DNA of 64,000 nucleotides from an uncultured Clostridia bacterium. GTDB taxonomy: Bacteria > Bacillota > Clostridia > Oscillospirales > CAG-272. Both the position numbers and the translations under genes were made by a program. Numbering within the stretch: position 1 is the first letter of the stretch; each line of letters begins with the position of its first letter. The notes beneath the pieces are model-generated. The model ran no database searches. It was not told the DNA's origin and was given only the letters and a program-made list of their open reading frames with translations. Shown here piece by piece: positions 19,051 to 38,569 of the stretch. The stretch lies in the NCBI GenBank assembly GCA_948466345.1, contig CAOKAC010000001.1, positions 194,283-258,282 on the forward strand. Direction: 5' to 3'.

Positions 19051-21465
19051 TTATGTCTGAGATATTAGTACCCTTAGCAAGTATGAATCGTATGCGGTAA
19101 TTTCACCGTCCTGGTCTATATCTGCAGTGATCAGATAAAAATAATCTGCATTGTTTGCCGCGATTAAATAATGCTCCGTAGTATTTATATCGTGTTCAGC
19201 CAAATATTTCGCTAATAAAAACGCGTCAATCGGTGTAATTTCCCCATCACAATCAATATCTCCAAGCTTTAAGCCGCAATCGGTACAAGCTCCGTCCAAA
19301 AAATTATGTTTATCAAAATCAATTGCCCTATATCCCGCTTTGCAGCGACCGCAAATTGCCGGAGAAGAGCAGGTAGACGCTTTTCCGGAATGCCCTAAGG
19401 GATTTCCAAAATTGGATTCATAAGCATATCCGCAGCCTGCGCTGCTGCATCTGTAAATTTTATAGCTAGGATTTTTGCAACTTGCAAAAGCAGAATTCAT
19501 ATTGAATGTATGTGTGTGTTTTGTCTTATATTCTGTAATATTACCAGTATAACTCCTTGAAGCTTTCGGGTATATATAGGGAATGGTTTCGTCAGTATAT
19601 ATATTTAGATGATCTCCAAATGCTGCGTCGGATTTCAAAAAGTTATCGTTGCAAATCGTACCACTGAACTGATTGTTGGCGTCATGACTACGATTGGCGT
19701 CCCAGGTAACATCCATATGATACCAGTTCGTTCCCAGTCTTACCATATTCCATGCATGCCCATCTCTGGAAGGCTCTTGCCCGCTAACATATATGCAATC
19801 AATACCGAACATATCCATAAACAATTTAAAGGTTTGCGCATATGCGTCGCATACACAAATTCTGTTTTTCAGCGCACCCAAAATGGTATATGACTCCTTG
19901 GGAATCGTATCATTTGCATAGTTTTCTCTATCATAGGCAATGTTTTTAACCATCCAATCATGGATTTTTCTAATTTTTGCCCCATATGTATCATTTGCAG
20001 TGATTCCGCTCTCCCGAATAGCAGCAACTGCAAGGCTGTATATTTCCTGATCCTCTTTAGAAAGCTGGCTGACATTTTGCGTGTTCGAACGGTATACACC
20101 CACGATTGTGTTCATACCGAAAGGAATATCCAGAATATCCTGCAAATAATGGCCGGTATATTTACTGTAAGCGTCGCTAAATGCAGTCACCTCAGGCAAT
20201 ACCTTTTCACCCACCTCGTTCTGCGTAGTATAGAAAACGTATTTTCCCGTATAATCGATTACATTGCTTTCCGACTTAAATTTCACCAATCTTGAACAAT
20301 TATAAAAGGCGTAGTCCTCTATTCTTGCAATCTTACCATTAACATCAAAATATGATAAATTTACACATCTATCAAAAGCATGCTCACCTATAGTGGAAAT
20401 CGGTTTTACACATTCAAAGCCCTTTAAAGAACCGCAATCTCTAAAGGCATTTGCTTTTATTGAAACACTTGTACTGGAAGCGGTATTTCCAAATTTAACA
20501 TATGTCAAATTGCTGCAATTTTGAAATGCGCCATTTCCAACGCTTACAACGCTGTCAGGCAAATAAACTGTAGAAAGCGATGCGCAGGAACCAAAAGCCC
20601 TATCTGAAATTGTTGTAATGGAATTATTAAAAACAATCTGTTCTAAGCTTCTGCAATTATAAAAGGCTGAGTATCCGATAGTAGCAAGCTGTTCGGGCAG
20701 TTCAAGAAGCTTTAAGGCACGGCAATTTATAAAAGCAGTATTTCCAATAGAAGTGAGCGAATCAGGAAAATCAATATATTCTAATGACGAACACCCTTCA
20801 AAAGCACCTTCCTGAATCGTTTTGAGATTTTCCGAAAGATATATATTCGTTAGATTTGTGCATCCTTTAAAAGCATTTGCTTTTATGTTAAGGACGCTTT
20901 TTGGAACCTCAAAAACAGATATAGAAGAACAATTTTCAAATGTTCCAGTGGGTATTGAAGTTAAACTGCCTTTGATTTCTACTGTTTTCAAATTTGTACA
21001 TCCCGAAAAGCAATTAGCCCATCTATTTAAGTCCTTTTCTTTTGGAGAACATAAAATTTTTGCAGACTCCAGCTGCTTACAATTTTCAAAACCGGATCTT
21101 ATGATTTGAACGGATGCAGGAATTGTAACCGTTTTAATGGAGGTTCCTGAAAATGCTTGGTGGGAAATACTCCATACGGTGTCAGGAATTTGAACGGATA
21201 CAATATTTTTCATATTTTCAAAACCGTCAACGCGGCCAACAGGAATTCCGTTAATAGATTCCGGAATGACCAAATCAATATTTCCTTCCAGCGGATTACA
21301 ACCCCAGATGGATATCTCTGCTTCTTGGGTTTCAGGATTTATTACTTCGCTATATTTAAATACCACCTCATCCGCTGCTTTTACGGAATAAAGGCTTCCC
21401 AAGACATTAAGAAACGATACTACCATAGAAAAAATTATAAAAATGCTTATGATTCTTTTTTTCAT
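19051..21465 (-). CDS. Secreted BspA-type leucine-rich-repeat / transglutaminase-like cysteine-protease-core / Cys-rich / dockerin protein
   Basis: ORF trimmed to ATG 21465 (MKKRIISIF; AAGGAG 8 nt upstream). About 14 LRR_5-type repeats (IP.SV..I...AF..C..L). Cys-His-Asp core: CVCDAYAQ, DGHAWNMV, HMDVTWD. C-terminal dockerin: DIDCDGEITPID and DIDQDGEITAYD. Confidence 0.8.
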   Translation of the reverse strand: MKKRIISIFIIFSMVVSFLNVLGSLYSVKAADEVVFKYSEVINPETQEAEISIWGCNPLEGNIDLVIPESINGIPVGRVDGFENMKNIVSVQIPDTVWSISHQAFSGTSIKTVTIPASVQIIRSGFENCKQLESAKILCSPKEKDLNRWANCFSGCTNLKTVEIKGSLTSIPTGTFENCSSISVFEVPKSVLNIKANAFKGCTNLTNIYLSENLKTIQEGAFEGCSSLEYIDFPDSLTSIGNTAFINCRALKLLELPEQLATIGYSAFYNCRSLEQIVFNNSITTISDRAFGSCASLSTVYLPDSVVSVGNGAFQNCSNLTYVKFGNTASSTSVSIKANAFRDCGSLKGFECVKPISTIGEHAFDRCVNLSYFDVNGKIARIEDYAFYNCSRLVKFKSESNVIDYTGKYVFYTTQNEVGEKVLPEVTAFSDAYSKYTGHYLQDILDIPFGMNTIVGVYRSNTQNVSQLSKEDQEIYSLAVAAIRESGITANDTYGAKIRKIHDWMVKNIAYDRENYANDTIPKESYTILGALKNRICVCDAYAQTFKLFMDMFGIDCIYVSGQEPSRDGHAWNMVRLGTNWYHMDVTWDANRSHDANNQFSGTICNDNFLKSDAAFGDHLNIYTDETIPYIYPKASRSYTGNITEYKTKHTHTFNMNSAFASCKNPSYKIYRCSSAGCGYAYESNFGNPLGHSGKASTCSSPAICGRCKAGYRAIDFDKHNFLDGACTDCGLKLGDIDCDGEITPIDAFLLAKYLAEHDINTTEHYLIAANNADYFYLITADIDQDGEITAYDSYLLRVLISQT

Positions 21466-21623
21466 CTTGTAAGCTCCTTTTTTACACAAATTGCTATATA
21501 ACTTCCAATGCTTTGCACATTATTGCCGCTTTTCTCATTAATAGAAGCGGCCAAAAAGAAAAGCACCTCCTTTCTTCACCATCCTGCATAATCTGTTCCT
21601 TTCCTGACTTGTTCCGGAGTCCT

Positions 21624-21651
21624 AAAAAGCGCCGGAGTCCCCCCCGACGCT
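21624..21651 (-). terminator. Terminator ending the 7-gene ABC/Yip1/DUF5696 operon
   Basis: Minus-strand AGCGUCGG-8 nt loop-CCGGCGCU (G.U instead of a mismatch on this strand) followed by UUUU, 11 nt after the stop at 21662. Confidence 0.5.
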
Positions 21652-21661
21652 TTTTCTCTCA

Positions 21662-22717
21662 TTAGCCTGTAATACCGGACCGCTCAATACCTTGAATAAT
21701 ATATTTTTGTGCAAAAACATAAATCAAAATAAGAGGAAGCAGAATAAGGATACCACAAGTGTTTGTAATCGCAGTGTTGTACATGCCCGCTGCAGCAGAT
21801 GTAATATTGAGGGATGTAGGAATCGCCACAATATCTGGCATCAGCGTAGGGCCTGCAGTGGTATAGAACAAATCTGTATAGAAATTGTCTGTCCATTGCC
21901 AGGAGAAGGCAAACATAAACACCGTGATCATCATAGGAACGGATAGAGGAATGATAATCTGAATGAAAGTACGGAACACACCGGCACCGTCCACATATGC
22001 AGATTCTTCCAATTCATCCGGCACACCCTTGAAGAACTGCCGCATCATAAAAATATACAGCCCGTTCTTAAAGGCCAAAGCAGTTGCGGACATAATCCAC
22101 AGCGGCCAATAGGTGTTGATCAGGTTAAGGGAAGGATTCTCCAATAACCGGAGCCAGTCTACCACGCCTCCGCCAAGCAAGTTTAGGATTCCTAAAATAT
22201 CAAAATATCGGAATTCCATAAACATAGAAAGCTGCAGTGTGGAATGAGGCACAATCATAGTAAAGATTACCAATAGGAACAGCAAATTGTTGAACTTGAA
22301 TTTAAACTTAGCAAATCCATAACCAACCAGACAGCAAACAAATGTCTGAATCAGGGCGCACGAACCGGCAAGAATAAAAGTATTCAACAATGCCGATAGG
22401 TATCCGTTTTCCATTATGATTGCCTTATAAATGTCCAGCGTTGGATATTTGGGAATCAGACGCACCGTTACATCTACAAAGTCCTCGGGACTCATAAAAG
22501 AGGATGCAATCTTAGAGTAAAACGGGAACAAAATTACATAACACACGCCAAGGAGCAGCAGGAATCGAAACAGGTACCAAACAACTCGCTTGAGGAAATA
22601 CAGGGACAGAAACTTTGATCTGAGCCGTTCGAGAAGAGGTGTGCGATCAAACTCGACGCGGATTTTGTTTTTGCTCTCTCTTTTTATTTTGGGAGCATTT
22701 GGGGCTTGATTAATCAT
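21662..22717 (-). CDS. Carbohydrate ABC transporter permease (MalG-like), second pair
   Basis: Track start is GTG 22723; ATG 22717 sits 9 nt from AAAGGAGG. EAA loop ESAYVDGAGVFRTFIQIIIP; about 50-aa basic N-terminal extension before TM1. Confidence 0.85.
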   Translation of the reverse strand: MINQAPNAPKIKRESKNKIRVEFDRTPLLERLRSKFLSLYFLKRVVWYLFRFLLLLGVCYVILFPFYSKIASSFMSPEDFVDVTVRLIPKYPTLDIYKAIIMENGYLSALLNTFILAGSCALIQTFVCCLVGYGFAKFKFKFNNLLFLLVIFTMIVPHSTLQLSMFMEFRYFDILGILNLLGGGVVDWLRLLENPSLNLINTYWPLWIMSATALAFKNGLYIFMMRQFFKGVPDELEESAYVDGAGVFRTFIQIIIPLSVPMMITVFMFAFSWQWTDNFYTDLFYTTAGPTLMPDIVAIPTSLNITSAAAGMYNTAITNTCGILILLPLILIYVFAQKYIIQGIERSGITG

Positions 22718-22735
22718 TTGCACAATCCTCCTTTC

Positions 22736-23725
22736 TTAGTCTTTCCTCTGGTAAAATACAAACAAACTGATAATTCCCGCAACAGCCGCTACAACAAGCA
22801 TTACTAGAAGGAAGTACATCCATGCCATGGCTGAACTGATTACATTGCCGTCACCCGCCGTTTTATACAGCTCGTTTACATAAGCCATGACAGAGTTATT
22901 ACCTGACGTAAATGAGTCGATAACCGTGTATATGGCATTCACCAAAATCATAGGAGAAATGATCGGCAGAGTAATTTTCCAGAAGGTTTCCCAGGACGAA
23001 GCACCCTCGATTTCACAGGACTCGTATATTGCAGGGGAAATTCCCTGCAGGCCCGCCAAGAAAATCAGCATCTGTACACCGGAACGGTTAACAATATCAA
23101 AAATATTGTTAACCAACTTGGTGACATTTGCAGCCAATTCGCTACCTACAATCATATTGTTAAACAAATTCTGCAAATCCGTCGCGGATATAATTTCAGC
23201 AACACTGGATCCCCCAGCGCCTCCCGTATCGATACCACCGGATTCAGAACCCATATAGTCACCCAGCATGTTGCCGGCATCAATATCTGCAATTAGTCCT
23301 GTGGTAAGCAAAACAGGAATAAAGAAAATCGCACGAAACGCTGCACGACCTGCCATTTTCTGGTTAAGCAAAAGGGCAATAAACAGAGAAAATAGAAGAA
23401 TTGCAGGAATCTCTACAATCAAGCCACCAAGACCGGTCCATAATGTTTCCACAAACTTTGCGTCGCTCAGCGCCGCTTGATAGTTTCCAAGACCTACCCA
23501 CACCAGTTCAAAACCGCCTCCGGTGATAATATCGATCTCATGGAAGCTATACTTAATAGAATCAAAAATAATCGGGATATAAATCAGAAGGAAGCCTAGC
23601 AGAAATGGGGCAATAAACAACCATCCGGCTCTTGATTTCTTTGCCTGCAGGCTAGCGCCGCGTTTTCTTTCTTTTACAACGCCAAGCTCCTGCTTGCCGG
23701 TCTTTGTTTTTTTCAAAAAAGCCAT
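22736..23725 (-). CDS. Sugar ABC transporter permease (MalF-like), second pair
   Basis: 329 aa; EAA loop ESCEIEGASSWETFWKITLP; 6 predicted TM; RBS GGAAGGAGG. Confidence 0.85.
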   Translation of the reverse strand: MAFLKKTKTGKQELGVVKERKRGASLQAKKSRAGWLFIAPFLLGFLLIYIPIIFDSIKYSFHEIDIITGGGFELVWVGLGNYQAALSDAKFVETLWTGLGGLIVEIPAILLFSLFIALLLNQKMAGRAAFRAIFFIPVLLTTGLIADIDAGNMLGDYMGSESGGIDTGGAGGSSVAEIISATDLQNLFNNMIVGSELAANVTKLVNNIFDIVNRSGVQMLIFLAGLQGISPAIYESCEIEGASSWETFWKITLPIISPMILVNAIYTVIDSFTSGNNSVMAYVNELYKTAGDGNVISSAMAWMYFLLVMLVVAAVAGIISLFVFYQRKD

Positions 23726-23740
23726 ATTATCCTCCTTCCC

Positions 23741-26704
23741 TTACCCGTCGATTCTGACGAAATTCAGCGCTTCCACTTCGTAAGTTTCTCCGCCGTATTC
23801 TACAGTAACGTCGTATGAATTATAGTTAATGATGAAGTTAGTGCCGTTTTCATATTCCACACGCACTACAGATCCGGTAACTGTTTCATATTTCTGCGTG
23901 TCTGCGCCGGAGGATGAACCGCCGGAAGTACTGCCGCTGCTGGTGCCAGAGTAATTAGGCGCTTGGCCAGTTCTCTGCGCTTCCAATTCTGCACGCAGTC
24001 TAAGCCGTTCTTCTTCAGCAGCTTTTTTCTCTTCGCTTTCCTTATCTACGGAAGAACCACCTTCTGTTTCATCCTTCTCTACACTACGCAAAGCTTCCAT
24101 AAACACGTGGTCTACAATCTGTGTAGTCTGCAAATCCCGCAGCGCCTCATTGACGATATCATAATATTTGATCATATCGTCCTTCCAGACATCATAAGCA
24201 ACCGAGTAAAACTTGTTGTATGTATCTGATTCTTTCAGGGCATTGGTATTTTGATAGCTCAAAACAAAGTAAAGACTTGCGCCATTTTCAATTGCTTTAA
24301 GCAAAGAATACTGTACATCGCCCTCCATGTTCAGCGCTCCACCTGTATAGTTTACATAGCCATGAAGCACCATGGATACAAAAGGAACCGATTCGCTAGC
24401 TCGCAGGAAATTGCTCGACTCTGTGGGAATATCCAAAATATGATTGGCATATGGCAGTACATATGCGTTTCCACCGTCTAACATAACGTCATATTTCTCA
24501 GAAAGTTTCTCCAGCAATTGCGTTGTAAATTTCTTAGAGTCTTCCCGGTTATATGGTTCATCTTCGTCAAAGTCGGAGTTCAAATCCTTTCCAAGTGTAG
24601 AAACAGAAATGGACTCAGGATCGTATTTGCTATAGTCCTTATCAAACTTATTATAGAAGTAATCATAGACAGACGAGGATATTGCCAGCGCAAAATCAGA
24701 TTCAAAGCTCTGCATTGCGGCATCGTATTCTCGTTTGGACATATAACGGTCATCAATAGACTTTACAAGATCTCGTTTTTCCCAGACACCGTCGAACCAA
24801 TCTTCGCTCTTCATATATGCAAAGTCAAAGTCAGGATAAACACCAAAATTGTTTTCCTTGCTGCTGGCCAACAGCTTTTTAAATCCTGATTTACCACCCA
24901 GTTCCTTCACCCAAGAAAGCTTCGAGGGATAGGTATTATCGAGACCGCCGTTATAGCTTCCTGTCAAGCGGAAGTTGATATTGGAAACACCTTCCTCTGA
25001 AAGCTCTTTATAAATTGTTTCTATGTCGTCAAAGGTGGTCAGTGCAGTATCTACCGTTACAGGGAAAGACAGCACACGCTCTGTCGTTTTAATGGAGCCA
25101 AAGGTCTCCAGATAAAGAGGCAAATCCTCCGAAATATTGTCTGCACTCAATGGAGTGATAATTTTGTTATCCTCCAGATAATCTCGATATGCAGCTGCCA
25201 TTCCCACATAGGACGGCTCGTAAAATTCTTCCTTACCTGCCGCAGAGGCTTTAGCCTCATCTGTCAGAAGCACATAGTTGATGGTATAAGATCCAGAATA
25301 CTTCCGGTCTGTAGTTACCGTCCAGGAGGCGTTGCTTCCAACGGAAATAGAATCTGCCAGATTATATGTGTCAGAGGGACGGGGATTAAAGCTTGCATAA
25401 ACATTGTTATAGCTGTGCAATTTACCGCCATGCTCACTCATAAGGTTTGCCATGGAATCTCCTTCAGAGATAATGGCAAGATAGCCTCTCCTATAGGAGT
25501 CCGTCCCATCACTGGACTGTGCAGGATTTGTTGCTGCTTCATCCACACCTGATTTGTCTTCCACTACGCCGAACACAGGCATTCGCATCGTTTCAGAGTG
25601 CTGACCAGAAATCGTATGGTACGCATAATCCGCGCCGTACATCTGTCCAGCAACATTATAGTTTGTACCAAACACATCTTCAAATCGAATCAATGTACCA
25701 GAGCCATCCGGAATAAAGGTATATCCAGTATTCTGAGAACTACCACACCCCATAAAGGGAAGCATGGTGATTGATTTCAAGACAAAGTTGGCCTCATCAA
25801 ATTGAATACCGTTTGCAGGAAGACGAGCTTGTATTCCCGTATCTGTAAAGGTGTACTCAATCGCCATTTTAAAGTTGGCAGGCGCTTTATCTGTATTGGT
25901 ATAGTCGCAATCCGCATGGTCCTGATCCATTTCCTCAAAAGTATAGGTAGGACAGTATGCTTTGATAATGGTCTCCAGATCTTCCAATTCCTTAGATACG
26001 ATCTCGACATCACAAATATATACTGCAAACTGCTTGGTAATCGGGAAAGCTGCTTGGATTTCCTTTACGTTACGCTCTGTCAGACTGACATCAGAGGTAT
26101 CATAAAGGGTGTAGAAAGACAGCAGTTTTTCTTTATATATCCCTTCCGGGATTTTATCCAAAATCATAGACTCAAAACGAGACTTGGAAATCATACGGGG
26201 AACCAGACGGGTTGTCATCAATTCTCCTACCGTATATTCCACACGCAGACCATTTTTAATATTTTTAAAGCTGATCTGTCCACGCAGCGCGGCTTCCTTG
26301 TAGGAATACATGGTTTTTTCCACGCTGTTTTCTTCGTATGTTACTGCAAGCTGAGACAACAAACGCTCCTTTGTAGATGCAGACGCCCAGTTATAGCCAG
26401 CAGAAACATCATACGGATTGGAGAATAAAGTATCGCCTGTTTTGGTATCCACAAATGCAACTTCACCTGTAAATTCTTCTATCCACAGTTGATAATCGCC
26501 CTGTTCCCTAGCAAGCACCATGTCCTTTAGTTTTGCCTCGGGTGAGGTATATGCTTTCGTAATATAGTTAATGACAGGATTTCCCTCTTCATCCACCTTG
26601 TCTTCATATGCTGCGGCAGTATCGATTACAGACGTATATCCTGTTACGGCGACAGCACCAAGCACTGTGATCAGGGACAGGAAGACAGATAATATTCTTT
26701 TCAT
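23741..26704 (-). CDS. Large secreted protein, DUF5696-like (function unknown)
   Basis: 987 aa; N-terminal signal/anchor MKRILSVFLSLITVLGAVAVTGY. Near the C-terminus: charged coiled segment (EEKKAAEEERLRLRAELEAQR), Ser/Gly linker, small terminal beta domain. Family assignment is from memory of similar loci, not searched. Confidence 0.55.
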   Translation of the reverse strand: MKRILSVFLSLITVLGAVAVTGYTSVIDTAAAYEDKVDEEGNPVINYITKAYTSPEAKLKDMVLAREQGDYQLWIEEFTGEVAFVDTKTGDTLFSNPYDVSAGYNWASASTKERLLSQLAVTYEENSVEKTMYSYKEAALRGQISFKNIKNGLRVEYTVGELMTTRLVPRMISKSRFESMILDKIPEGIYKEKLLSFYTLYDTSDVSLTERNVKEIQAAFPITKQFAVYICDVEIVSKELEDLETIIKAYCPTYTFEEMDQDHADCDYTNTDKAPANFKMAIEYTFTDTGIQARLPANGIQFDEANFVLKSITMLPFMGCGSSQNTGYTFIPDGSGTLIRFEDVFGTNYNVAGQMYGADYAYHTISGQHSETMRMPVFGVVEDKSGVDEAATNPAQSSDGTDSYRRGYLAIISEGDSMANLMSEHGGKLHSYNNVYASFNPRPSDTYNLADSISVGSNASWTVTTDRKYSGSYTINYVLLTDEAKASAAGKEEFYEPSYVGMAAAYRDYLEDNKIITPLSADNISEDLPLYLETFGSIKTTERVLSFPVTVDTALTTFDDIETIYKELSEEGVSNINFRLTGSYNGGLDNTYPSKLSWVKELGGKSGFKKLLASSKENNFGVYPDFDFAYMKSEDWFDGVWEKRDLVKSIDDRYMSKREYDAAMQSFESDFALAISSSVYDYFYNKFDKDYSKYDPESISVSTLGKDLNSDFDEDEPYNREDSKKFTTQLLEKLSEKYDVMLDGGNAYVLPYANHILDIPTESSNFLRASESVPFVSMVLHGYVNYTGGALNMEGDVQYSLLKAIENGASLYFVLSYQNTNALKESDTYNKFYSVAYDVWKDDMIKYYDIVNEALRDLQTTQIVDHVFMEALRSVEKDETEGGSSVDKESEEKKAAEEERLRLRAELEAQRTGQAPNYSGTSSGSTSGGSSSGADTQKYETVTGSVVRVEYENGTNFIINYNSYDVTVEYGGETYEVEALNFVRIDG

Positions 26705-26725
26705 TTTCTTAAATTACCTCCTTCC

Positions 26726-28861
26726 CTACATCCTATATTGTAGTTCATCCACAATACTAAAGATGAAGCTAATAATTTTGGTGATCAGCGTTGAGAAGAG
26801 CACCGCAATAAACATAATGAATATCATGCCGACAATCGTTACGGCTGCAATCAGCACGCTCTTTCCAAAGGAATAATCGTGGGTAATCATCATACCGAAG
26901 AATATCAAAATACCCACCCACAAGAACGCAACGGTGTTGATAATAGAAATAAAACTTACTTCTTCTGATACCAATATGTTAGAAAGCAGCGTACTTGGAA
27001 TAAGCAAAAGCGGCAACGGAACAAGTGCGTAGCAGCTTGCTGTAAACACATTGGCAAAGCTGCCTTCCCCGTCAAACAAAGTAGTGAGACACCAGTTTGC
27101 AACCACCCACAAAAGTAGTGGCATAACCACGGAAACTAGCGTCATAAAGATATTAGCTGTATTTGCATCCTGTCCGCCAAAAATATATCCTGTACCCACC
27201 GTCTGATAGAAGAACGCGAGAACCGTTATAACCAAAATTACGAATGCACTGCGTACACTACCTCGTTTTTCGTGTTTCAAATCCCAGAATCCGTCAAAGG
27301 GATGGAAAAGTATATGGAAAGCGTACAGTAGTTCCTCACGGATATTTTTCTGTCCAACCTTCATGGCGGCAAGTCGGTTACGCTTTGCCGCATATCCAAA
27401 GAATTTCACTACCAGGACTGCAATAAAGATTACAACAACTGGAATTAAGATAAAGAATTTGGATATCCAGTCTTTTCGAATTTCTTTGTAAGAATCGGAA
27501 TATCCGCCTCTATCATAGGCCGCTTTATAATAATCCATAGCATCTTCAAAACTGCCTTCACGATACAAAGCCTTTGCAATACCTACGTATGCTACATCAA
27601 AGTTGTTGTTCCGTTTGAGAATCTCTCTCCAGTCACTGATTTCCGCATCGTAGTTGCGTTCGTTTTGGTTCTTCAGTGCGTTGATCAAAATATCACCATA
27701 CTCTGTCCTTCTGTACACAGTAAAGCTCATATTGACCTTATCTAAAAGAAGCATTTTATCGCCCTGGTATACAACTGCTTCAATACTACCAATAGATCCT
27801 AACTGGTTTCCGTTGTCACCAAAAGCAAATAGCAGGTTTCCTTCATCATCATACGTAAACACCTTGGAACGCTTTTCATCAATAATAGACCAGGTTCCCT
27901 GCGGCCCTACGGCAGCATCGATAATTACAGAAGCACCTTTAATTGCACTTGTTTCCGAAGTAGATACTTTTACTTCGCCAGAGGGAGGATAAAATCCATT
28001 TCTTCGCATAATGTCCGTGCCGGACACATTCAACTTTTTAACAGGAGCAAAGGTGCCTGCCTTGCTTTTATTGTTAATCTCCTGCTGCTGCGTATCTGCA
28101 TCTATGGAGGATGTTGTTACATACAGAAAATTGTTCTCGTCAATGGTAATGTTATTATATTCCGTAGAAACAATGGTTTCCTCGTCATTCTTGCCCCATT
28201 TTCTCCAAAAGGCTTGCCACCGTGAAAGCGTTGTTTTCTGTGCGCCGATATACCCATAGAATTCGCCGCTGTCACCCATGACGATAATACCTTCAAACGT
28301 AGTGGAAGATACCACAAACATTCTGCCGTATTCGTCTACTGCTACTGCTACCGGACGATAAATCGCATTTTCTGCTATCAAAGCACTCTGCGGCTTGCCG
28401 ACTGTCTTCACAAAATTTCCATCCCGGTCAAAAATGACAATACGACTGTTTTCTGAATCACAGGCATAAATAAAATCTGCAGTAATAAATACGCCGGATA
28501 CACCGGAAAAAGAGTCAGGAACCCCTTGCTCGTTTACAAAAGAACGGATGGTAAATTTACTTTTATAATATTTATCCAGCACATAAATGGCGTTTTGCTT
28601 TCCATCTACAATATATACATTTCCGTCTTCGTCCACTTCCAGATCGCGGGGATCTTCCAAAATAATGGAATTACCGAAAACGTCTGTCCCCATAAAATCA
28701 GTATCTACAACTTCATCCGGTACATACGCATCTGGTGAATACAATACAAAACCACTGGAGGAATATGTATAAGTCGTATACGGTGTTGCAGCAGATGCAG
28801 TCGCAGGCAGCACACACAGCAATGCCATCAGGACCAGGAGTATTTTTATTGATTTTTTCAT
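26726..28861 (-). CDS. Secreted NHL-type beta-propeller / TPR-like / C-terminal Yip1-family membrane domain protein
   Basis: 711 aa; signal peptide ending ATASA. NHL-like blades: DEDGNVYIVDGKQNAIYVLD, ACDSENSRIVIFDRDGNF, VDEYGRMFVV, DDEGNLLFAFGD. TPR-like AKALYREGSFEDAMDYYKAAY. One TM (aa about 467-489), then about 5 TM with a Yip1-like FHPFDGFWDLK entry. Confidence 0.65.
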   Translation of the reverse strand: MKKSIKILLVLMALLCVLPATASAATPYTTYTYSSSGFVLYSPDAYVPDEVVDTDFMGTDVFGNSIILEDPRDLEVDEDGNVYIVDGKQNAIYVLDKYYKSKFTIRSFVNEQGVPDSFSGVSGVFITADFIYACDSENSRIVIFDRDGNFVKTVGKPQSALIAENAIYRPVAVAVDEYGRMFVVSSTTFEGIIVMGDSGEFYGYIGAQKTTLSRWQAFWRKWGKNDEETIVSTEYNNITIDENNFLYVTTSSIDADTQQQEINNKSKAGTFAPVKKLNVSGTDIMRRNGFYPPSGEVKVSTSETSAIKGASVIIDAAVGPQGTWSIIDEKRSKVFTYDDEGNLLFAFGDNGNQLGSIGSIEAVVYQGDKMLLLDKVNMSFTVYRRTEYGDILINALKNQNERNYDAEISDWREILKRNNNFDVAYVGIAKALYREGSFEDAMDYYKAAYDRGGYSDSYKEIRKDWISKFFILIPVVVIFIAVLVVKFFGYAAKRNRLAAMKVGQKNIREELLYAFHILFHPFDGFWDLKHEKRGSVRSAFVILVITVLAFFYQTVGTGYIFGGQDANTANIFMTLVSVVMPLLLWVVANWCLTTLFDGEGSFANVFTASCYALVPLPLLLIPSTLLSNILVSEEVSFISIINTVAFLWVGILIFFGMMITHDYSFGKSVLIAAVTIVGMIFIMFIAVLFSTLITKIISFIFSIVDELQYRM

Positions 28862-28871
28862 AAATACCTCC

Positions 28872-29744
28872 TTAGTCTTTCATACCGCTCGAACCCATTG
28901 TCTCAATGATTCTGCTTTGTGAAACTACAAATACCACGATGGGCACAATCATCATAACAACAGTTGCGGCGGCTGACGCGCCGGAACGAACGATACCTTC
29001 GAGCAATACCTGGTTGATTGTGAAGTTCAGCGTTTTTAGCTGTTCACTATATATATATATATTTTGTCCAGTGTTCCAAAGTCCCTGGAAGGAGTAGATA
29101 ATCAATGTCAGCCACGCTGGTTTTACCATAGGCATGGCAATAGACCAAAATGTTCTGAATTCTCCCGCGCCGTCCAGCCGTGCACTTTCCAAAATTTCCG
29201 TAGACACGTTGGAATCAATAAATTGCTTCATTAAATAGAGGCCAAGCGGCGTCGCAAGAGCCGGAACAATAATAGCCCAATATGAATCCAACATTCCCAG
29301 CTTTGAAATAATAACGAAAATCATAAGCTGTGCTACTTCCGAGTTAATCATCAAGGATTTCTGAATCACTTGGAAGGTAAATTTGTGTCCGGGGAATGGG
29401 AGCTTAGACAGTGCATATGCACACATGGAAGAAAGAATCAAGTTCCCAAAGGTTCCACACACAGTAATAAATACCGTATTGAAGAGATACCGGGAAAATG
29501 GTACCCATGAGGTGTTAAGCAGATTAAATAAATCGGAAAAGTTTTCAAAAGACGGATTCGTAACATACATTCTGGGAGGAAAGTAAAACAATTCGTCCAA
29601 AGGCTTCAAAGACTGAATAATCAGATAGTACATAGGGAAAAACATGACCACGCCCAACAGGAGCATGAAAATAGTAACGCCAAAATCCCCGCCAATGGAC
29701 CGGCTGAGCACCACCCGATGCTTTCTTGTTCTTAATTTTTTCAT
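28872..29744 (-). CDS. Carbohydrate ABC transporter permease (MalG-like), first pair
   Basis: 290 aa; EAA loop ESARLDGAGEFRTFWSIAMP; start overlaps the upstream stop (TGATG, 1-nt overlap). Confidence 0.88.
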   Translation of the reverse strand: MKKLRTRKHRVVLSRSIGGDFGVTIFMLLLGVVMFFPMYYLIIQSLKPLDELFYFPPRMYVTNPSFENFSDLFNLLNTSWVPFSRYLFNTVFITVCGTFGNLILSSMCAYALSKLPFPGHKFTFQVIQKSLMINSEVAQLMIFVIISKLGMLDSYWAIIVPALATPLGLYLMKQFIDSNVSTEILESARLDGAGEFRTFWSIAMPMVKPAWLTLIIYSFQGLWNTGQNIYIYSEQLKTLNFTINQVLLEGIVRSGASAAATVVMMIVPIVVFVVSQSRIIETMGSSGMKD

Positions 29745-30688
29745 CAGCTTTTACCCACCTTTGAAAGCATCTTCTGTACCAGCATGTTTGATCCGATCAT
29801 CAGGAAGAAAAGTACCATGGAAATCGCACATGCATATCCGAATTCCCACCGAGTGGTACCATACTCAGCCAAATGGTGGGAAAGCGTGTATCCCACATAG
29901 TCTGTAGGAATACCCCCGCACAAGGTTGTCACAATCGCACCAAATCCAAAGGAGTTGGTGATCGACATTATAGCACCGAACAAAAGCTGCGGTTTCATGC
30001 TTGGTAGCGTGATATACCAAAGTTCCTGCCACCGGTTTGTAATCCCGTCCACAGCGCCCGCTTCCAATTGGCTGCGGTCCAGTCCCTGGAAACCTGCGAT
30101 AAAGGAAAGAAACGCGGTGCCCAATGACATCCACAGAGCAATAAAAATAACGGTTGGCATAATCATTTTTACATCTTGGAAAAATAAAATCGGAGTGTCA
30201 ATAATACCCCAGTTCATCAGCCATCCGTTCAAAAGACCGTAGGAGTCACCGGAAAAGATGTAGTTGAATACCACATAGATACCGCCGCAGAGAGAAGGCG
30301 CATAAAAGATTAATGTTACAAACGCACGCACCTTCGGCGACAGCTCGTTGATAAACCATGCTACTATAAAGGACAGAATATAAGACCCAGGCCCTACTGT
30401 GATAGCGAAAATCATAGTATTTTTCACTGCCGTGATAAATAAATCATCGTTAATAAACAAGTTGATGTAGTTATCAAGGCCTACCCAGTTCGGCATCTGG
30501 AGCAGGTTGAAGTCTGTAAAGCTTACAAGTATACCGGAAAAAACCGGGATAACCGTTATCAAAGTAAACAACAGTACATACGGCGCAATCATCACATAGC
30601 CGATTTTATACTGTTTCATAAGATGCCAAGTCCATTGGAGCCTTGTTTTGTCTCCATGCGCTATGACTTCTTTTTCTTTCTTAGCCAT
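29744..30688 (-). CDS. Sugar ABC transporter permease (MalF-like), first pair
   Basis: 314 aa; EAA loop EAGAVDGITNRWQELWYITLP; 6 predicted TM. Confidence 0.88.
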   Translation of the reverse strand: MAKKEKEVIAHGDKTRLQWTWHLMKQYKIGYVMIAPYVLLFTLITVIPVFSGILVSFTDFNLLQMPNWVGLDNYINLFINDDLFITAVKNTMIFAITVGPGSYILSFIVAWFINELSPKVRAFVTLIFYAPSLCGGIYVVFNYIFSGDSYGLLNGWLMNWGIIDTPILFFQDVKMIMPTVIFIALWMSLGTAFLSFIAGFQGLDRSQLEAGAVDGITNRWQELWYITLPSMKPQLLFGAIMSITNSFGFGAIVTTLCGGIPTDYVGYTLSHHLAEYGTTRWEFGYACAISMVLFFLMIGSNMLVQKMLSKVGKS

Positions 30689-30713
30689 GTTGCTTCTCCT
30701 AATTTAGATTTGT

Positions 30714-30751
30714 GCGGCCCCCGACCGGCCGCCAACGGACAGGCCGGGTCC
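30714..30751 (-). promoter_or_regulatory. GC-rich intercistronic stem-loop(s) between the SBP and the first permease gene
   Basis: GCGGCC-(loop)-GGCCGC core in GCGGCCCCCGACCGGCCGC plus adjacent GGAC..GTCC; no U-run follows, so it is not a full terminator. Confidence 0.4.
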
Positions 30752-30778
30752 ATTTGTATACTGGATATTCATTATGGT

Positions 30779-33700
30779 TCAGCTTTCTTCGAGCCACTCT
30801 TTATAGGAGAGGTCTGTCTTGCCGTTCTTGACATCTGCCTTCCAGGATTCATAATTGTTCACAGAAACGCCATTCTCTTCCATCCAATCTCTAAAGGAAT
30901 ATTCATACTCCTCAGAATACTGCATGCAGGAGTTGTCGTCCTGTTCGGTAATATCATAGGTTTCATTCCAGTATTCGCGCCACTGGCCAAAATCATCCAT
31001 TTCCATATATGCGCGGATAGCCTGCCACTCATCATCCACCATAAGCTTAAATTCCTTGCGCTTACGAGTGATTTCCCGGTTCATAACAGGTGTGTATTCC
31101 TGCAGCATATTTGATGCGTCCGCATTTTCCGAATAGCCGCGGTTTACCACAAAGTTTGCATACCGGTCAATAAAGTAACTGCCCGGATAGGAAGGAACAG
31201 AATAGGCAGACTCCAGACATGTTAAAAGCGTCTTATATTCAGAATCGGTCCATGGCTGCTCTGCAAGCGCCTCCAGATTGGCAAGCTGCTGCTTTGCAGA
31301 GGGACCCAAAAGGGCTACCATTTCTTCTGAATAATCTACTGCATAATCTTTTGATCCGATGTAATCCAACAGATCCCATGCAGCTTCCAAGTCTCTGCAG
31401 TCTTTGGTCATATACACACCATCTGCACCAGCCTCTACTGAACGGTTAATCTCACCTGTTTCCTCGTTTAAAACGCCCGGTGTCTGATAGAAGGTCCACA
31501 GGTTGCTGATTTCTGGAGCAAATACCACCAGTGTATTATAAAGACTATAATCGGCCAAAATGATCGGCATTTCACCAGATTTAAAACGGTTGGCCGCATC
31601 GAACTGTTTTGTCAGAGAGTATTGTTGATACAAGCTATTGATAAAGTCAAATGCATCCACCACTTCGTCAGAATCAAATGCACTGCGCATTCCTTCATCT
31701 TCCCAAAGGTCTCCGCCGTTCTGATACACAAAGGTTCTGTAATTTGCCTGGAATCCGATTTCCATATTATTAAATTGAAGCGTTGGGATCAGCGCAATTA
31801 CGTCATCCCAAGTTTGGGGAATTTCCACGCCTAACTGTTGTATTACATCGTTACGGACAAACATTACGGAAAAGCCTTGCCCAAAGGGAATTGCATAAGT
31901 CTTTCCATATAGAGACAACCGATTCAATGAGCTTTCCGCAAACCGGCTGACAACCTCGTCAAAGGTATCAAAATCATTCAGAGGCAGTATAGCGCCACGA
32001 ATTGCCATCTCGGTAGGATCGCCCTGGTCCAAAACAATGTCGGGACCTACTCCCGCCAAAATAGACGGCAAAATTACGTTTTGACCGGTCAGTTTAACAT
32101 TTGCTCCGATTCCGGTTTTCTGCGTGAAGCCACTGTTGATCAAGTTTTTCATAACCTGCGCTGTATCACGCCCCTTGGAAGTCCACGCCTCCAAAGTCAC
32201 ATTCGCCTCGGCTTCATCCGTTCCTTCTACACCAATTGTATTGTAGTCTGTGTAAAAGCTGGCGACAAATTTCTTAAATTCAAATACAAAGGAAGACCAT
32301 CCGCCATCTTTTCCCTGGGGCAACTCGCTGCCGACCGGTTGGATTTGAATGTAGTCTACCTGCAGATACTGCATACTCACTTCAGACAGCCATGTACCCA
32401 AAGAGGAGATCCAGGTTTTCAGTTCTCCCATATTGGCTGCGATTTCTTTTTCATCGGTAACCATCTTTTCAATTACCAATGCGGCCTGTTCCAATGTAGA
32501 GGTGTTTTCTGAACGCCCTCCGTTCATTTCCAATATATAATCTACCAGCTGGCTAAGCACGCCCTGCTGTCTGCCAAGGTCTTTGATTACATTTGGCATA
32601 ATCCGGCTAAATCCATAATCCCGGTTGGGGTCTGGATCAACGCCGGTCAGCTTAACAAGTTCCAAATAGTCGTCATTCAAGCTGTCTACCGTTTCAGCAA
32701 CCTGACGTAAAATGTCGGTAAATGCACCTTTGGTCGCTTCAAATTCCAGCGTGTAGGTTTCGCCTTCTTCAAAATAAAATTGGAAGGTAGTACTGCCGTC
32801 GTTCAGCGCGGCGGACTGCCACTTCTGATTATAAGGGAACTGACAATTCTTTGCTTCAATAAAAGGATATTCTCCGTTAATCTTCAGACTTCTGGAGGTA
32901 TACATTCCCTTTACAGTCGCCTGTTCGTACCGCAGTGCTATTTCATACAAGCCGGAGGCAGGACACTCAAATGTGTATCGGATCCACTGTCCGGAGTTGA
33001 TCCATTTTTCCCCACCCATAGTGTTTCTGTATATCAAAGCTGGGTCCTGCGGGCTGGTTCCGGCAGATGTACGGTCATAAATTGGGTAAATTGTATAGTT
33101 GGACACAGAATCAGGCATTTCCGCTTCAATCTTGATAGGGTCTGCATCGGCTGGCTCGTAACCCTTGTCCTTATATTCCTGCAGTACTTCCTCATATGTA
33201 GCAGGATCTTCATATGTATAAAAGGTAAAGTTTTCAATGGCAATAGGCTCCCGGATTCCTTCCAAGGTAATCACGTTTTCGCCGGCTTCCATATAAAACT
33301 CCAACGGCACTGTGTAGTACCCGTCTGGATCCTTCACATCATACACATCCCAAACAAAATCCACCTTTGCAGAAGGATTCAGTTCATTACCGATAGAGTC
33401 TTTTACAAACGCAGTTTCTCTATCGTCGCTCTCATACTCGTATACCCACGTTTTGGTAATACGCAGAAAACGTGCTTCATCATACGGTGCCTTGCCGTTC
33501 AGCGCAAAAAGACGTTCGATATCGTTTGTGCTGTCGCTGGTGGCACTATAATTGAGACGAATCGCATAAAAACCGCTTTTCGGAACATTGAATTTCCAGG
33601 AAATGCTTCCGTTTGCTCCTACAATCAAGCAGTCCCTACCCTGCCAGGTAGTCTTTTCCACTTCAGCATTATCCGTCTTTTCAAAGTAATCCTGTGCGTC

Positions 33701-33940
33701 AACTACAAACTCCTCGCCGGTGCGGGGCGTATCCTCGTATTCATACTTTGATTTATAATTCTCATAGGTCAGCAGCGTATATTCATCCTGAAGCTGCTTG
33801 AGCGTTACACCGGTAGAGGTGCCTTTTCCATCATTCGCCGCATCATCGGTATCTTGCGCAAATACCGGCACTGCGGATCCAATCAGCATCAGCGCACCCA
33901 GCGAGAACGCCAGAAGCTTTTTGGCCTTTCCTGTTTTCAT
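30779..33940 (-). CDS. Giant extracellular solute-binding protein (family-1 SBP core) with two N-terminal CBM6/35-like modules
   Basis: 1053 aa; type-I signal peptide (..SAVPVFA/QD), no lipobox Cys. Two similar modules: SWKFNVPKSGFYAIRLNYSA...LFALNGK and IRYTFECPASGLYEIALRYEQ...SLKINGE. C-terminal about 500 aa resemble sugar SBPs (LEAWTSKG..., YGKTYAIPFG, WDDVIAL). Confidence 0.75.
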   Translation of the reverse strand: MKTGKAKKLLAFSLGALMLIGSAVPVFAQDTDDAANDGKGTSTGVTLKQLQDEYTLLTYENYKSKYEYEDTPRTGEEFVVDAQDYFEKTDNAEVEKTTWQGRDCLIVGANGSISWKFNVPKSGFYAIRLNYSATSDSTNDIERLFALNGKAPYDEARFLRITKTWVYEYESDDRETAFVKDSIGNELNPSAKVDFVWDVYDVKDPDGYYTVPLEFYMEAGENVITLEGIREPIAIENFTFYTYEDPATYEEVLQEYKDKGYEPADADPIKIEAEMPDSVSNYTIYPIYDRTSAGTSPQDPALIYRNTMGGEKWINSGQWIRYTFECPASGLYEIALRYEQATVKGMYTSRSLKINGEYPFIEAKNCQFPYNQKWQSAALNDGSTTFQFYFEEGETYTLEFEATKGAFTDILRQVAETVDSLNDDYLELVKLTGVDPDPNRDYGFSRIMPNVIKDLGRQQGVLSQLVDYILEMNGGRSENTSTLEQAALVIEKMVTDEKEIAANMGELKTWISSLGTWLSEVSMQYLQVDYIQIQPVGSELPQGKDGGWSSFVFEFKKFVASFYTDYNTIGVEGTDEAEANVTLEAWTSKGRDTAQVMKNLINSGFTQKTGIGANVKLTGQNVILPSILAGVGPDIVLDQGDPTEMAIRGAILPLNDFDTFDEVVSRFAESSLNRLSLYGKTYAIPFGQGFSVMFVRNDVIQQLGVEIPQTWDDVIALIPTLQFNNMEIGFQANYRTFVYQNGGDLWEDEGMRSAFDSDEVVDAFDFINSLYQQYSLTKQFDAANRFKSGEMPIILADYSLYNTLVVFAPEISNLWTFYQTPGVLNEETGEINRSVEAGADGVYMTKDCRDLEAAWDLLDYIGSKDYAVDYSEEMVALLGPSAKQQLANLEALAEQPWTDSEYKTLLTCLESAYSVPSYPGSYFIDRYANFVVNRGYSENADASNMLQEYTPVMNREITRKRKEFKLMVDDEWQAIRAYMEMDDFGQWREYWNETYDITEQDDNSCMQYSEEYEYSFRDWMEENGVSVNNYESWKADVKNGKTDLSYKEWLEES

Positions 33941-34097
33941 ATGAAATCCTCCTGAAAGTGTTGCCCGCAGGCGGTCTGCCAGCCCGGGCTAAACAAGCTG
34001 CAAACGCAGCCAAGCAGTTGCCACAACCTGTTTTTATCTGGCCGTAACAAAACCACTGGGACAAAAATTCCCCTTTTGCCCCATTTGTATACAATAT

Positions 34098-34126
34098 ATG
34101 ATAACACAAGCCCGATTCCATGTCAA
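34098..34126 (-). promoter_or_regulatory. Sigma-A promoter of the 7-gene operon
   Basis: Minus strand TTGACA-17 nt-TATCAT with TGt extended -10; about 150-nt leader to the SBP ATG. Confidence 0.6.
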
Positions 34127-35652: not shown

Positions 35653-36078
35653 ATGATCGTATCCACTAAAGGCCGTTATGCACTGCGGGTCATGCTGGCC
35701 CTTGCCGACGAGAAAACCTGCAATTATGTCCCCTTAAAGGTAATTGCACAAAAAGAAGATATTTCTTTAAAATATCTGGAAAGTATTCTTGTGATTCTTA
35801 GTCGGGCCGGCTTTGTAGATGCGCTGCGTGGGCGGGGCGGTGGATACCGACTTGCAAAGTCTCCTGGAGAATACACAGTCGGCAGTATTCTCCAGCTTAC
35901 GGAAAGTACCATGGCTTCCGTTTCCTGCCCCGAATGTGTGGAAGGAGCGTGTGACCGGTCTAGGGCATGCAAAACTCTGCCTTTGTGGCGAGGTCTGGAC
36001 AAAATCGTATCAGAATATTTGGACGGAGTCACTCTAGAAAATCTGATGGATCCTGCCTTTTTCAAATCAGACGATTGA
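35653..36078 (+). CDS. Rrf2-family transcriptional regulator (probable Fe-S cluster ligands)
   Basis: ORF trimmed to ATG 35653 (MIVSTKGRYALRVMLALA); wHTH; Cys cluster CPECVEGACDRSRAC. Confidence 0.85.
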   Translation: MIVSTKGRYALRVMLALADEKTCNYVPLKVIAQKEDISLKYLESILVILSRAGFVDALRGRGGGYRLAKSPGEYTVGSILQLTESTMASVSCPECVEGACDRSRACKTLPLWRGLDKIVSEYLDGVTLENLMDPAFFKSDD

Positions 36079-36089
36079 AGGATGCATAC

Positions 36090-38486: not shown

Positions 38487-38569
38487 GTAACGGTTAATGC
38501 TGCTTGCCTCATAATGAAACTTTTTTGTATCATTATGTTACGCCTTGGTGCAGCAGATTGGAGGCTTCT

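Follow-up and report, generated by a model that had tools for sequence, protein, structure and literature searches.

What is the function of a gene cluster that combines two pairs of sugar-importer permeases with one outsized binding protein, and that keeps between the two pairs a Yip1-family membrane protein and a secreted protein of family DUF5696? The question is raised by a stretch of 64,000 nucleotides (nt) from an uncultured Clostridia bacterium (assembly GCA_948466345.1, contig CAOKAC010000001.1, positions 194,283 to 258,282), which was analysed whole and is called the window here. Seven tightly spaced open reading frames (ORFs) lie at 33940-21662, all on the minus strand. In order of transcription they encode a giant secreted substrate-binding protein (SBP) of 1053 residues (30779-33940), the permeases P1 (MalF/UgpA-like, 314 residues, 29744-30688) and P2 (MalG/UgpE-like, 290 residues, 28872-29744), an NHL-TPR-Yip1 membrane protein of 711 residues (26726-28861), the secreted DUF5696 protein of 987 residues (23741-26704), and a second pair of permeases, P3 (MalF/UgpA-like, 329 residues, 22736-23725) and P4 (MalG/UgpE-like, 21662-22723). 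P4 has 353 residues if read from a GTG, or 351 from the ATG at 22717, 6 bases downstream, which is the start used in public gene calls. An earlier note on this DNA had given the same ORFs, strands, order and gaps, and the ORF list agrees with it to the coordinate. That note saw in the genes an integrated machine for capture, processing and import, which we consider a reasonable inference. On balance we are inclined to read the cluster as a self-contained, vertically inherited operon that harvests an extracellular glycan in anaerobic Clostridia.

The reading starts from the conservation of the cluster. One genome per species was scanned, which located relatives in 544 species-level genomes; the best 80 loci were fetched and their gene order was read by tblastn searches with the seven proteins of the window. 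The order SBP-P1-P2-Yip1-DUF5696-P3-P4 on one strand is found in all 66 GTDB loci whose flanking sequence is long enough, at DUF5696 identities down to 46%. The other 14 of the 80 contigs end inside the cassette and contain contiguous sub-runs in the same order. Metagenomes were queried with distant members of the DUF5696 family, which share only 33-37% identity among themselves; the retrieved loci encode DUF5696 proteins 32-82% identical to that of the window. The seven-gene order is identical in each of the 43 full-length metagenome loci, the remaining contigs being truncated sub-runs. The order is thereby verified in 109 loci (66 from GTDB and 43 from metagenomes) with DUF5696 identities of 32-98%, and no gene has been lost, moved or swapped in any informative locus.

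The spacing of the genes is also kept. The gaps in the window are 90, -1, 10, 21 and 15 nt, followed by 12 nt (GTG start of P4) or 18 nt (ATG start), with the start of P2 overlapping the stop of P1; the medians across loci are 65, 1, 12, 21, 16 and 17 nt with narrow spreads (55-113 loci), and the gap between P1 and P2 is at most 7 nt (113 loci). P4 is the most conserved gene of the set (61-99% identity across loci). Since the seven genes are constant and are set among unrelated flanking genes, they are an autonomous, co-inherited module; the earlier claim that they form one unit is thus upheld by the neighbourhood survey, with order, strand and spacing retained in every informative locus and the flanks not. 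The carriers are uncultured Clostridia from animal gut, rumen, termite gut and digesters (Candidatus Avispirillum, 'Flemingibacterium' and Oscillospiraceae bins). The literature searched for DUF5696, for Yip1 with ABC importers and for ZgGH129 contains no mention of this operon, of DUF5696 or of the gene combination, consistent with the note's statement that it knew of no experimental work on it.

The DUF5696 protein matches the Pfam family (PF18952) at 520.4 bits against a cut-off of 25.6 (E 8.5e-156); the family comprises 5349 clusters at 50% identity (E <= 1e-3). An AlphaFold2 model calculated from 39 homologues (predicted local distance difference test, pLDDT, 75.8; predicted TM-score, pTM, 0.75) consists of an N-terminal β-sandwich, a (β/α)8 barrel at approximately residues 500-870, a variable helical or low-complexity linker, and a C-terminal β module (941-987). 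The C-terminal module is as conserved as the putative catalytic core; the linkers are not. GH129 and GH101 enzymes act on α-linked, galacto-configured residues, and it is to these that the model is closest. A Foldseek search of the PDB placed the GH129-like 3,6-anhydro-D-galactosidase DagB (5opq) at the top (4.8e-27, TM-score 0.68 on the target), followed by the GH129 α-N-acetylgalactosaminidase NagBb (5wzp, 2e-20) and GH101 endo-α-GalNAcases (1e-13), with GH31 and GH36 enzymes weaker. The domain order of DagB, a β-sandwich, a barrel and a C-terminal β domain, is that of the DUF5696 model (PMC5698469).

The kinship is also visible at the level of profiles. The DUF5696 family profile finds NagBb with an E value of 0.0038, and hhalign aligns 149 family representatives with NagBb over 471 columns (probability 92%, E 7e-7). 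Residues 129-628 of NagBb, read from the PDB alignment via a homologue rebuilt from a frameshifted contig, were scanned against Pfam and matched DUF5696 at 52.6 bits (cut-off 25.6), Glyco_hydro_101 at 33.2 bits and Glyco_hydro_129 at 26.1 bits. Since NagBb scores higher on DUF5696 than on the GH129 family itself, the label 'unknown function' looks out of date. Identity to GH129 members is around 11% in the Foldseek alignments and 21% over the hhalign columns. The alignments and the model together suggest that the DUF5696 protein is a distant relative of the GH129/GH101 α-glycosidases, within GH129 or in a sister family, and a candidate rather than a proven enzyme. It was thus correct that no glycoside hydrolase can be recognised in the unit by Pfam name, but the fold of the model is that of GH129/GH101; likewise DUF5696 is uncharacterised in name, but Foldseek, the family profile and the passage of NagBb over the DUF5696 threshold link it to GH129.

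Eight residues (D333, D359, D445, R720, N746, H781, N792 and E806) are invariant across the 149 representatives, which are 38-53% identical to the window protein, and D711 is an aspartate in 140 of them. Invariant polar residues at such low identity argue for a conserved functional site. The HMMER local alignment stopped short of the catalytic region, which hhalign reached.

We note that some DUF5696 orthologues are 1600-2500 residues long and are located in the same seven-gene cassette (proteins P0373, P0380, P0292 and P0278; loci L089, L124, L127, L143 and L162). They have either an insertion of around 600 residues in the N-terminal β-sandwich or C-terminal extensions, some of more than 1000 residues. 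The extra regions of these giant homologues gave no match to Pfam.

The 711-residue membrane protein has a Yip1 domain (PF04893, residues 515-684) at 64.8 bits against a cut-off of 28.6, together with weak Pfam matches to NHL and TPR. Its AlphaFold2 model (pLDDT 71) has a signal peptide, a six-bladed NHL propeller (46-385), about three TPR-like hairpins (387-468) and a transmembrane helix (469-499). These are followed by a predicted cytoplasmic segment and five long Yip1 helices (536-710), consistent with the hydropathy segments. The propeller assignment agrees with a phmmer match to the NHL domain of Thin (4.8e-14) and with Foldseek matches to the NHL domains of TRIM71 and Brat (1e-13, TM-score 0.7 on the target). 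The best-conserved stretch of the protein, at 74% mean identity, is the predicted cytoplasmic motif HPFDGFWDLKHEKRGS (520-535) directly before the first Yip1 helix, with many positions unchanged throughout 40 homologues. The earlier note knew of no assigned role of Yip1 proteins in bacteria. It overlooked Bacillus subtilis YknW, a Yip1-domain subunit of the ABC transporter YknWXYZ (PMC4887032).

Nearly all orthologues of the SBP, Yip1 and DUF5696 proteins have signal peptides of the signal peptidase I (SPase-I) type. Few of the binding proteins (12 of 92) and of the DUF5696 proteins (7 of 128) have a lipobox-like motif, and the SBP of the window has none. Neither the SBP nor the DUF5696 protein has a further hydrophobic segment. 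An anchorless binding protein and a presumed enzyme in a Gram-positive cell need to be held, and the Yip1 protein is the only membrane protein of the module with a large ectodomain. We therefore propose that it is probably a membrane scaffold for the two.

The SBP, scanned whole, gave no binding-protein match. Residues 561-1053 alone match SBP_bac_1 at 66.9 bits (cut-off 26, 4e-18) and SBP_bac_8 at 9e-17, and the 1053-residue protein matches a solved sugar-binding protein, Lin1841, at 1e-12. Its nearest solved relatives bind various oligosaccharides. The layout comprises an SPase-I signal peptide, two β modules (about 60-415), a helical region (about 416-560), the family-1 core (about 560-1000) and a variable tail. 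The two N-terminal β-rich modules are homologous to each other (internal BLASTP E 2e-6), and the extra N-terminal domains match the binding core in conservation, as the tail does not. A sequence search of the PDB with the N-terminal 538 residues gave no match. The earlier description of a giant binding protein decorated with carbohydrate-binding modules (CBMs) therefore stands as to the family-1 core, which is located in the C-terminal half, but the CBM part is weakly supported, by β modules with sub-threshold matches; from sequence, a CBM-like nature of these modules is plausible.

All four permeases are BPD_transp_1 proteins, as previously read, and the four EAA-loop strings that had been quoted are all found in the translations. 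Domain calls were confirmed with Pfam and NCBIfam. P1 (EAGAVDG) matches BPD_transp_1 at 4.6e-11 and also the UgpA and PotB models; P2 (ESARLDGAG) matches at 8.4e-9, and UgpE at 2e-25. The corresponding values are 7.9e-8 (UgpA 5e-12) for P3 (ESCEIEGAS), which has a long extracytoplasmic loop at about 140-215, and 2.6e-14 (UgpE 4e-20) for P4 (ESAYVDGAG). The features of a CUT1 importer, namely paired BPD_transp_1 proteins with EAA loops and a family-1 binding protein, are present. P1 and P3 are 23% identical and P2 and P4 24%, which indicates that the permease pairs are ancient and distinct and not the result of a recent duplication.

The seven genes would be transcribed together as one message of about 12.3 kb. 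The promoter at 34098-34126 (minus strand) that the earlier note had picked out is borne out by the sequence: it is of the sigma-A type, with TTGACA, a 17-nt spacer, TATCAT and the TG of an extended -10 element, agreeing with consensus at 11 of 12 positions in addition to the TG. Promoter-like sites as such are not enriched in the region (34 found, 33.8 expected in shuffled sequence). The site at 34126-34098 has nevertheless stayed the same in five relatives in which the DNA around it has drifted, and more than half of 88 diverged loci have a near-consensus extended -10 promoter (TTGACA/T, N14, TGnTATnAT) at a distance of 90-280 nt ahead of their first gene. Such recurrent promoters with long leaders suggest strong expression, with regulation via the leader. 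The proposed terminator (21624-21651, minus strand) is also borne out, as a hairpin followed by UUUUU with a folding energy of -23.9 kcal/mol (z -3.76); none of 200 shuffled sequences folds as well. A sub-threshold Rfam match to isrH (24.9 bits, gathering score 45) at 21624-21720 on the minus strand overlaps the terminator and is most likely spurious. The gene upstream of the operon encodes a polysaccharide deacetylase and is closed by a hairpin of its own; with the terminator at the other end, the unit is bounded on both sides.

The leader itself (34057-34094, minus strand) can be read as two elements. Directly after the -10 box lies TTGTATACAA (34094-34085), a perfect 10-bp palindrome, and after it comes a hairpin (34083-34057) that has a U-rich tail and folds at -16.8 kcal/mol (z -2.6). 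Both are unchanged in the five relatives, whose binding proteins are 74-98% identical, with adjacent bases drifting, and in two loci that are more distant (L016 and L017) the offset of the palindrome is the same. No Rfam family, and thus no riboswitch or known RNA, matched the 150-nt leader. The palindrome may serve as an operator and the hairpin as a leader attenuator.

The seven-gene unit encodes neither an ABC ATPase nor a regulator, nor a glycoside hydrolase that Pfam recognises; as regards ATPase and regulator, Pfam and the gene calls confirm what had been noted. A MalK-type ATPase is absent from the 64-kb window and from the related loci; the single ORF of the window with Walker-A and LSGGQ motifs is located some 21 kb past the promoter of the operon, and its P-loop is not MalK-like. 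The absence of an ATPase, which the note had remarked on, is normal among Firmicute sugar importers, since these usually share an MsmX/MsmK ATPase encoded elsewhere.

The nearest ORFs upstream and downstream were scanned against Pfam at 84 loci per side. The upstream neighbours include a ROK sugar kinase at 21 of the 84 loci and a class-V aminotransferase at 11, the rest being scattered housekeeping genes; downstream, the 84 proteins match 97 Pfam families. As a hint to the substrate, the ROK kinase is the sole recurrent neighbour on either side, a protein of approximately 320 residues encoded about 0.7-0.9 kb upstream on the divergent strand (positions 1078-2040 of locus L020, and 20 other loci). 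Its size fits a kinase and would leave no room for a DNA-binding domain. Where it occurs, this kinase would indicate no more than that the product is a hexose or hexosamine. No conserved regulator, ABC ATPase, carbohydrate-active enzyme or cytoplasmic glycosidase was found among these nearest neighbours, and other loci do not retain the Rrf2 gene that lies near the operon in the window. The Pfam, NCBIfam and neighbourhood results contain no pointer to a role in defence or in a mobile element, defence-system and phage libraries not having been searched.

Directly downstream of the operon in the window, at 19051-21489 on the minus strand, an 812-residue protein combines four BspA-type LRR_5 blocks, a transglutaminase-like core and a type-I dockerin; it is unconserved in other loci. 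The dockerin suggests that the organism probably has a cohesin-dockerin surface system. Upstream, on the opposite (plus) strand, are a ComEC gene (35967-38417) and a GH31 glycosidase gene (38504-40837), both unlinked to the cassette in other genomes.

Taken together, these observations are consistent with the following scheme. A strong promoter would drive the single transcript. The secreted SBP would capture a glycan or oligosaccharide via its CBM-like modules and family-1 core, and the secreted DUF5696 protein would trim it or release sugar units outside the cell. P1P2 and P3P4 would form two CUT1-type importers, powered by a shared MsmK/MsmX-type ATPase encoded elsewhere and carrying the sugars inwards. 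The NHL-TPR-Yip1 protein would be a membrane organiser, with propeller and TPR facing outward and keeping the SBP and the enzyme close to the permeases, and it would contact the transporter through the Yip1 helices and the conserved cytoplasmic motif. A stronger version, in which all seven products form a single complex anchored in the membrane, the equivalent in Gram-positive cells of the Bacteroidetes utilisome, with the SBP and enzyme docked by the NHL/TPR part of the Yip1 protein above two translocators, is in our view rather doubtful.

Several observations weigh against glycan harvesting as we read it. The structure models of the DUF5696 protein (pLDDT 76) and the Yip1 protein (71) are both of moderate confidence. 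The nucleophile of NagBb, D435 in YLDVF (the numbering was checked; the DagB counterpart is D486), falls within LNSDF of the DUF5696 protein, where hhalign pairs it with N709, and D711 is two residues on, so that the register is ambiguous. The acid/base residue of NagBb, E478 in SSEEV, corresponds to an alignment gap beside the invariant N746 (GGNAY), with no conserved acidic residue there. The CBM assignment relies on sub-threshold matches to Golvesin_C and Inhibitor_I42. One binding protein for two permease pairs is left unexplained. Finally, the module has neither a regulator nor a cytoplasmic catabolic enzyme linked to it, which is atypical of nutrient-glycan loci.

The state of the active site and the missing second binding protein would both be accounted for if the DUF5696 protein were a catalytically dead, GH129-like glycan binder acting as the receptor for P3P4, so that the operon would consist of two tandem modules of receptor, MalF and MalG with the Yip1 gene between them. 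The order SBP-P1-P2 is indeed mirrored by DUF5696-P3-P4, the operon lacks a second binding protein, the acid/base residue of GH129 is not retained, and both P3 and P4 have enlarged extracytoplasmic loops. We nevertheless find this distinctly unlikely. We know of no ABC importer that uses a TIM-barrel receptor, and the many invariant polar residues, with D711 94% conserved, resemble an active site more than a binding surface. DagB, a true enzyme of the lineage, likewise lacks the NagBb acid/base residue and uses E517 (PMC5698469). Alternatively, the cluster could be an ordinary Gram-positive sugar operon whose products act independently, the Yip1-NHL protein having an unrelated membrane role and no supercomplex being formed. 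All parts but Yip1 belong to classes common in glycan loci, and an ATPase encoded elsewhere is usual in these bacteria. Such independence sits poorly with a gene set that has remained intact over 32-98% identity while its flanks turned over completely, and with intergenic distances held within a few nt. The SBP and the enzyme without anchors, and a cytoplasmic motif that is the most conserved part of the Yip1 protein, also speak against it, and we judge this reading unlikely.

The glycan need not come from outside the cell. A housekeeping system that recycles or remodels the organism's own envelope glycan (wall polysaccharide, capsule or a spore-related polymer) would suit an operon that lies amid core genes (tRNA synthetases, GroEL, NifS/NifU and MnmA) without a regulator, has strong consensus promoters widely, is found alike in gut, rumen, termite and digester bacteria and is kept in a metagenome-assembled genome of 2.47 Mb. 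Cell-wall genes also flank it at times (polysaccharide deacetylase, VanY, a SleB-type hydrolase and LysM). These wall neighbours are few, however, with Polysacc_deac_1 at 4 of 84 upstream positions and VanY at 2 of 84 upstream and 5 of 84 downstream, and no tie to genes for wall synthesis came to light. Nutrient uptake would account just as well for the CBM-like modules and for the upstream ROK kinase. An envelope role therefore appears very unlikely to us, and harvesting of an extracellular glycan is the reading we retain.

How far does the operon depart from systems already known? Its MalF/UgpA and MalG/UgpE pairs, EAA loops and family-1 core are those of CUT1 importers such as MalEFGK2, UgpBAEC and the MsmX/MsmK-driven systems, and its ATPase lies outside the operon, as in many Firmicute systems. 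It differs from them in having two diverged permease pairs with a single binding protein, in the size of that protein (more than twice normal, with around 530 extra N-terminal residues and usually no lipid anchor), and in two extra extracellular or membrane proteins fixed inside the operon. With GH129 (NagBb 5wzn; DagB 5opq) and GH101 the DUF5696 protein shares the three-domain fold and kinship at the profile level, with D711 at or beside the presumed nucleophile position; the low identity and unconserved NagBb acid/base residue set it apart, and so does its place in a transporter operon. NagBb is described as intracellular, whereas the DUF5696 protein is secreted. A glycosidase that feeds an importer from outside has a precedent in bifidobacteria, where an extracellular GH101 enzyme is combined with the GNB/LNB (galacto-N-biose/lacto-N-biose) ABC importer.

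YknWXYZ resembles the operon in that a bacterial Yip1-domain membrane protein is tied, genetically and functionally, to an ABC transporter (PMC4887032). It differs in that YknYZ is a MacB-type exporter accompanied by a membrane-fusion protein and YknW lacks a large ectodomain, whereas the Yip1 protein of the operon neighbours type-I importer permeases only and carries an NHL propeller and TPR. The polysaccharide utilisation loci of gut Firmicutes (Gram-positive polysaccharide utilisation loci, gpPULs) likewise co-locate a glycosidase-type protein with a carbohydrate ABC transporter. A gpPUL comprises a degradative enzyme, a transporter and a regulator; the operon has neither a linked regulator nor a cytoplasmic glycosidase, its content is invariant and not mosaic, and it has the Yip1-NHL-TPR protein. 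The SusCD utilisome and BtuG-BtuB offer a conceptual analogy only, a surface binding protein, enzyme and transporter being encoded together, although the β-propeller BtuG2 is among the weaker Foldseek neighbours of the NHL domain; these Bacteroidetes systems are outer-membrane, TonB-dependent systems of diderms, with no homology of the transport parts. Each part of the operon thus comes from a known class, and an extracellular glycosidase with an ABC importer is a known strategy. What is new is the invariant seven-gene composition, the presence of two importer channels with one oversized anchorless SBP, and the obligatory NHL-TPR-Yip1 protein.

The tie between DUF5696 and the GH129/GH101 glycosidases provides a starting point for finding the substrate, and the operon is a tractable case for the function of bacterial Yip1-domain proteins. 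A further question that it poses is by what means Gram-positive bacteria retain binding proteins and enzymes that lack anchors beside their importers. If the seven products do not form a complex, the glycan-uptake operon remains widespread and unusually rigid, and is worth proper annotation. If they do, capture, cleavage and import would be physically coupled, and the operon would represent a new architecture for glycan harvesting by ABC importers and the first defined role of a Yip1 protein in nutrient uptake.

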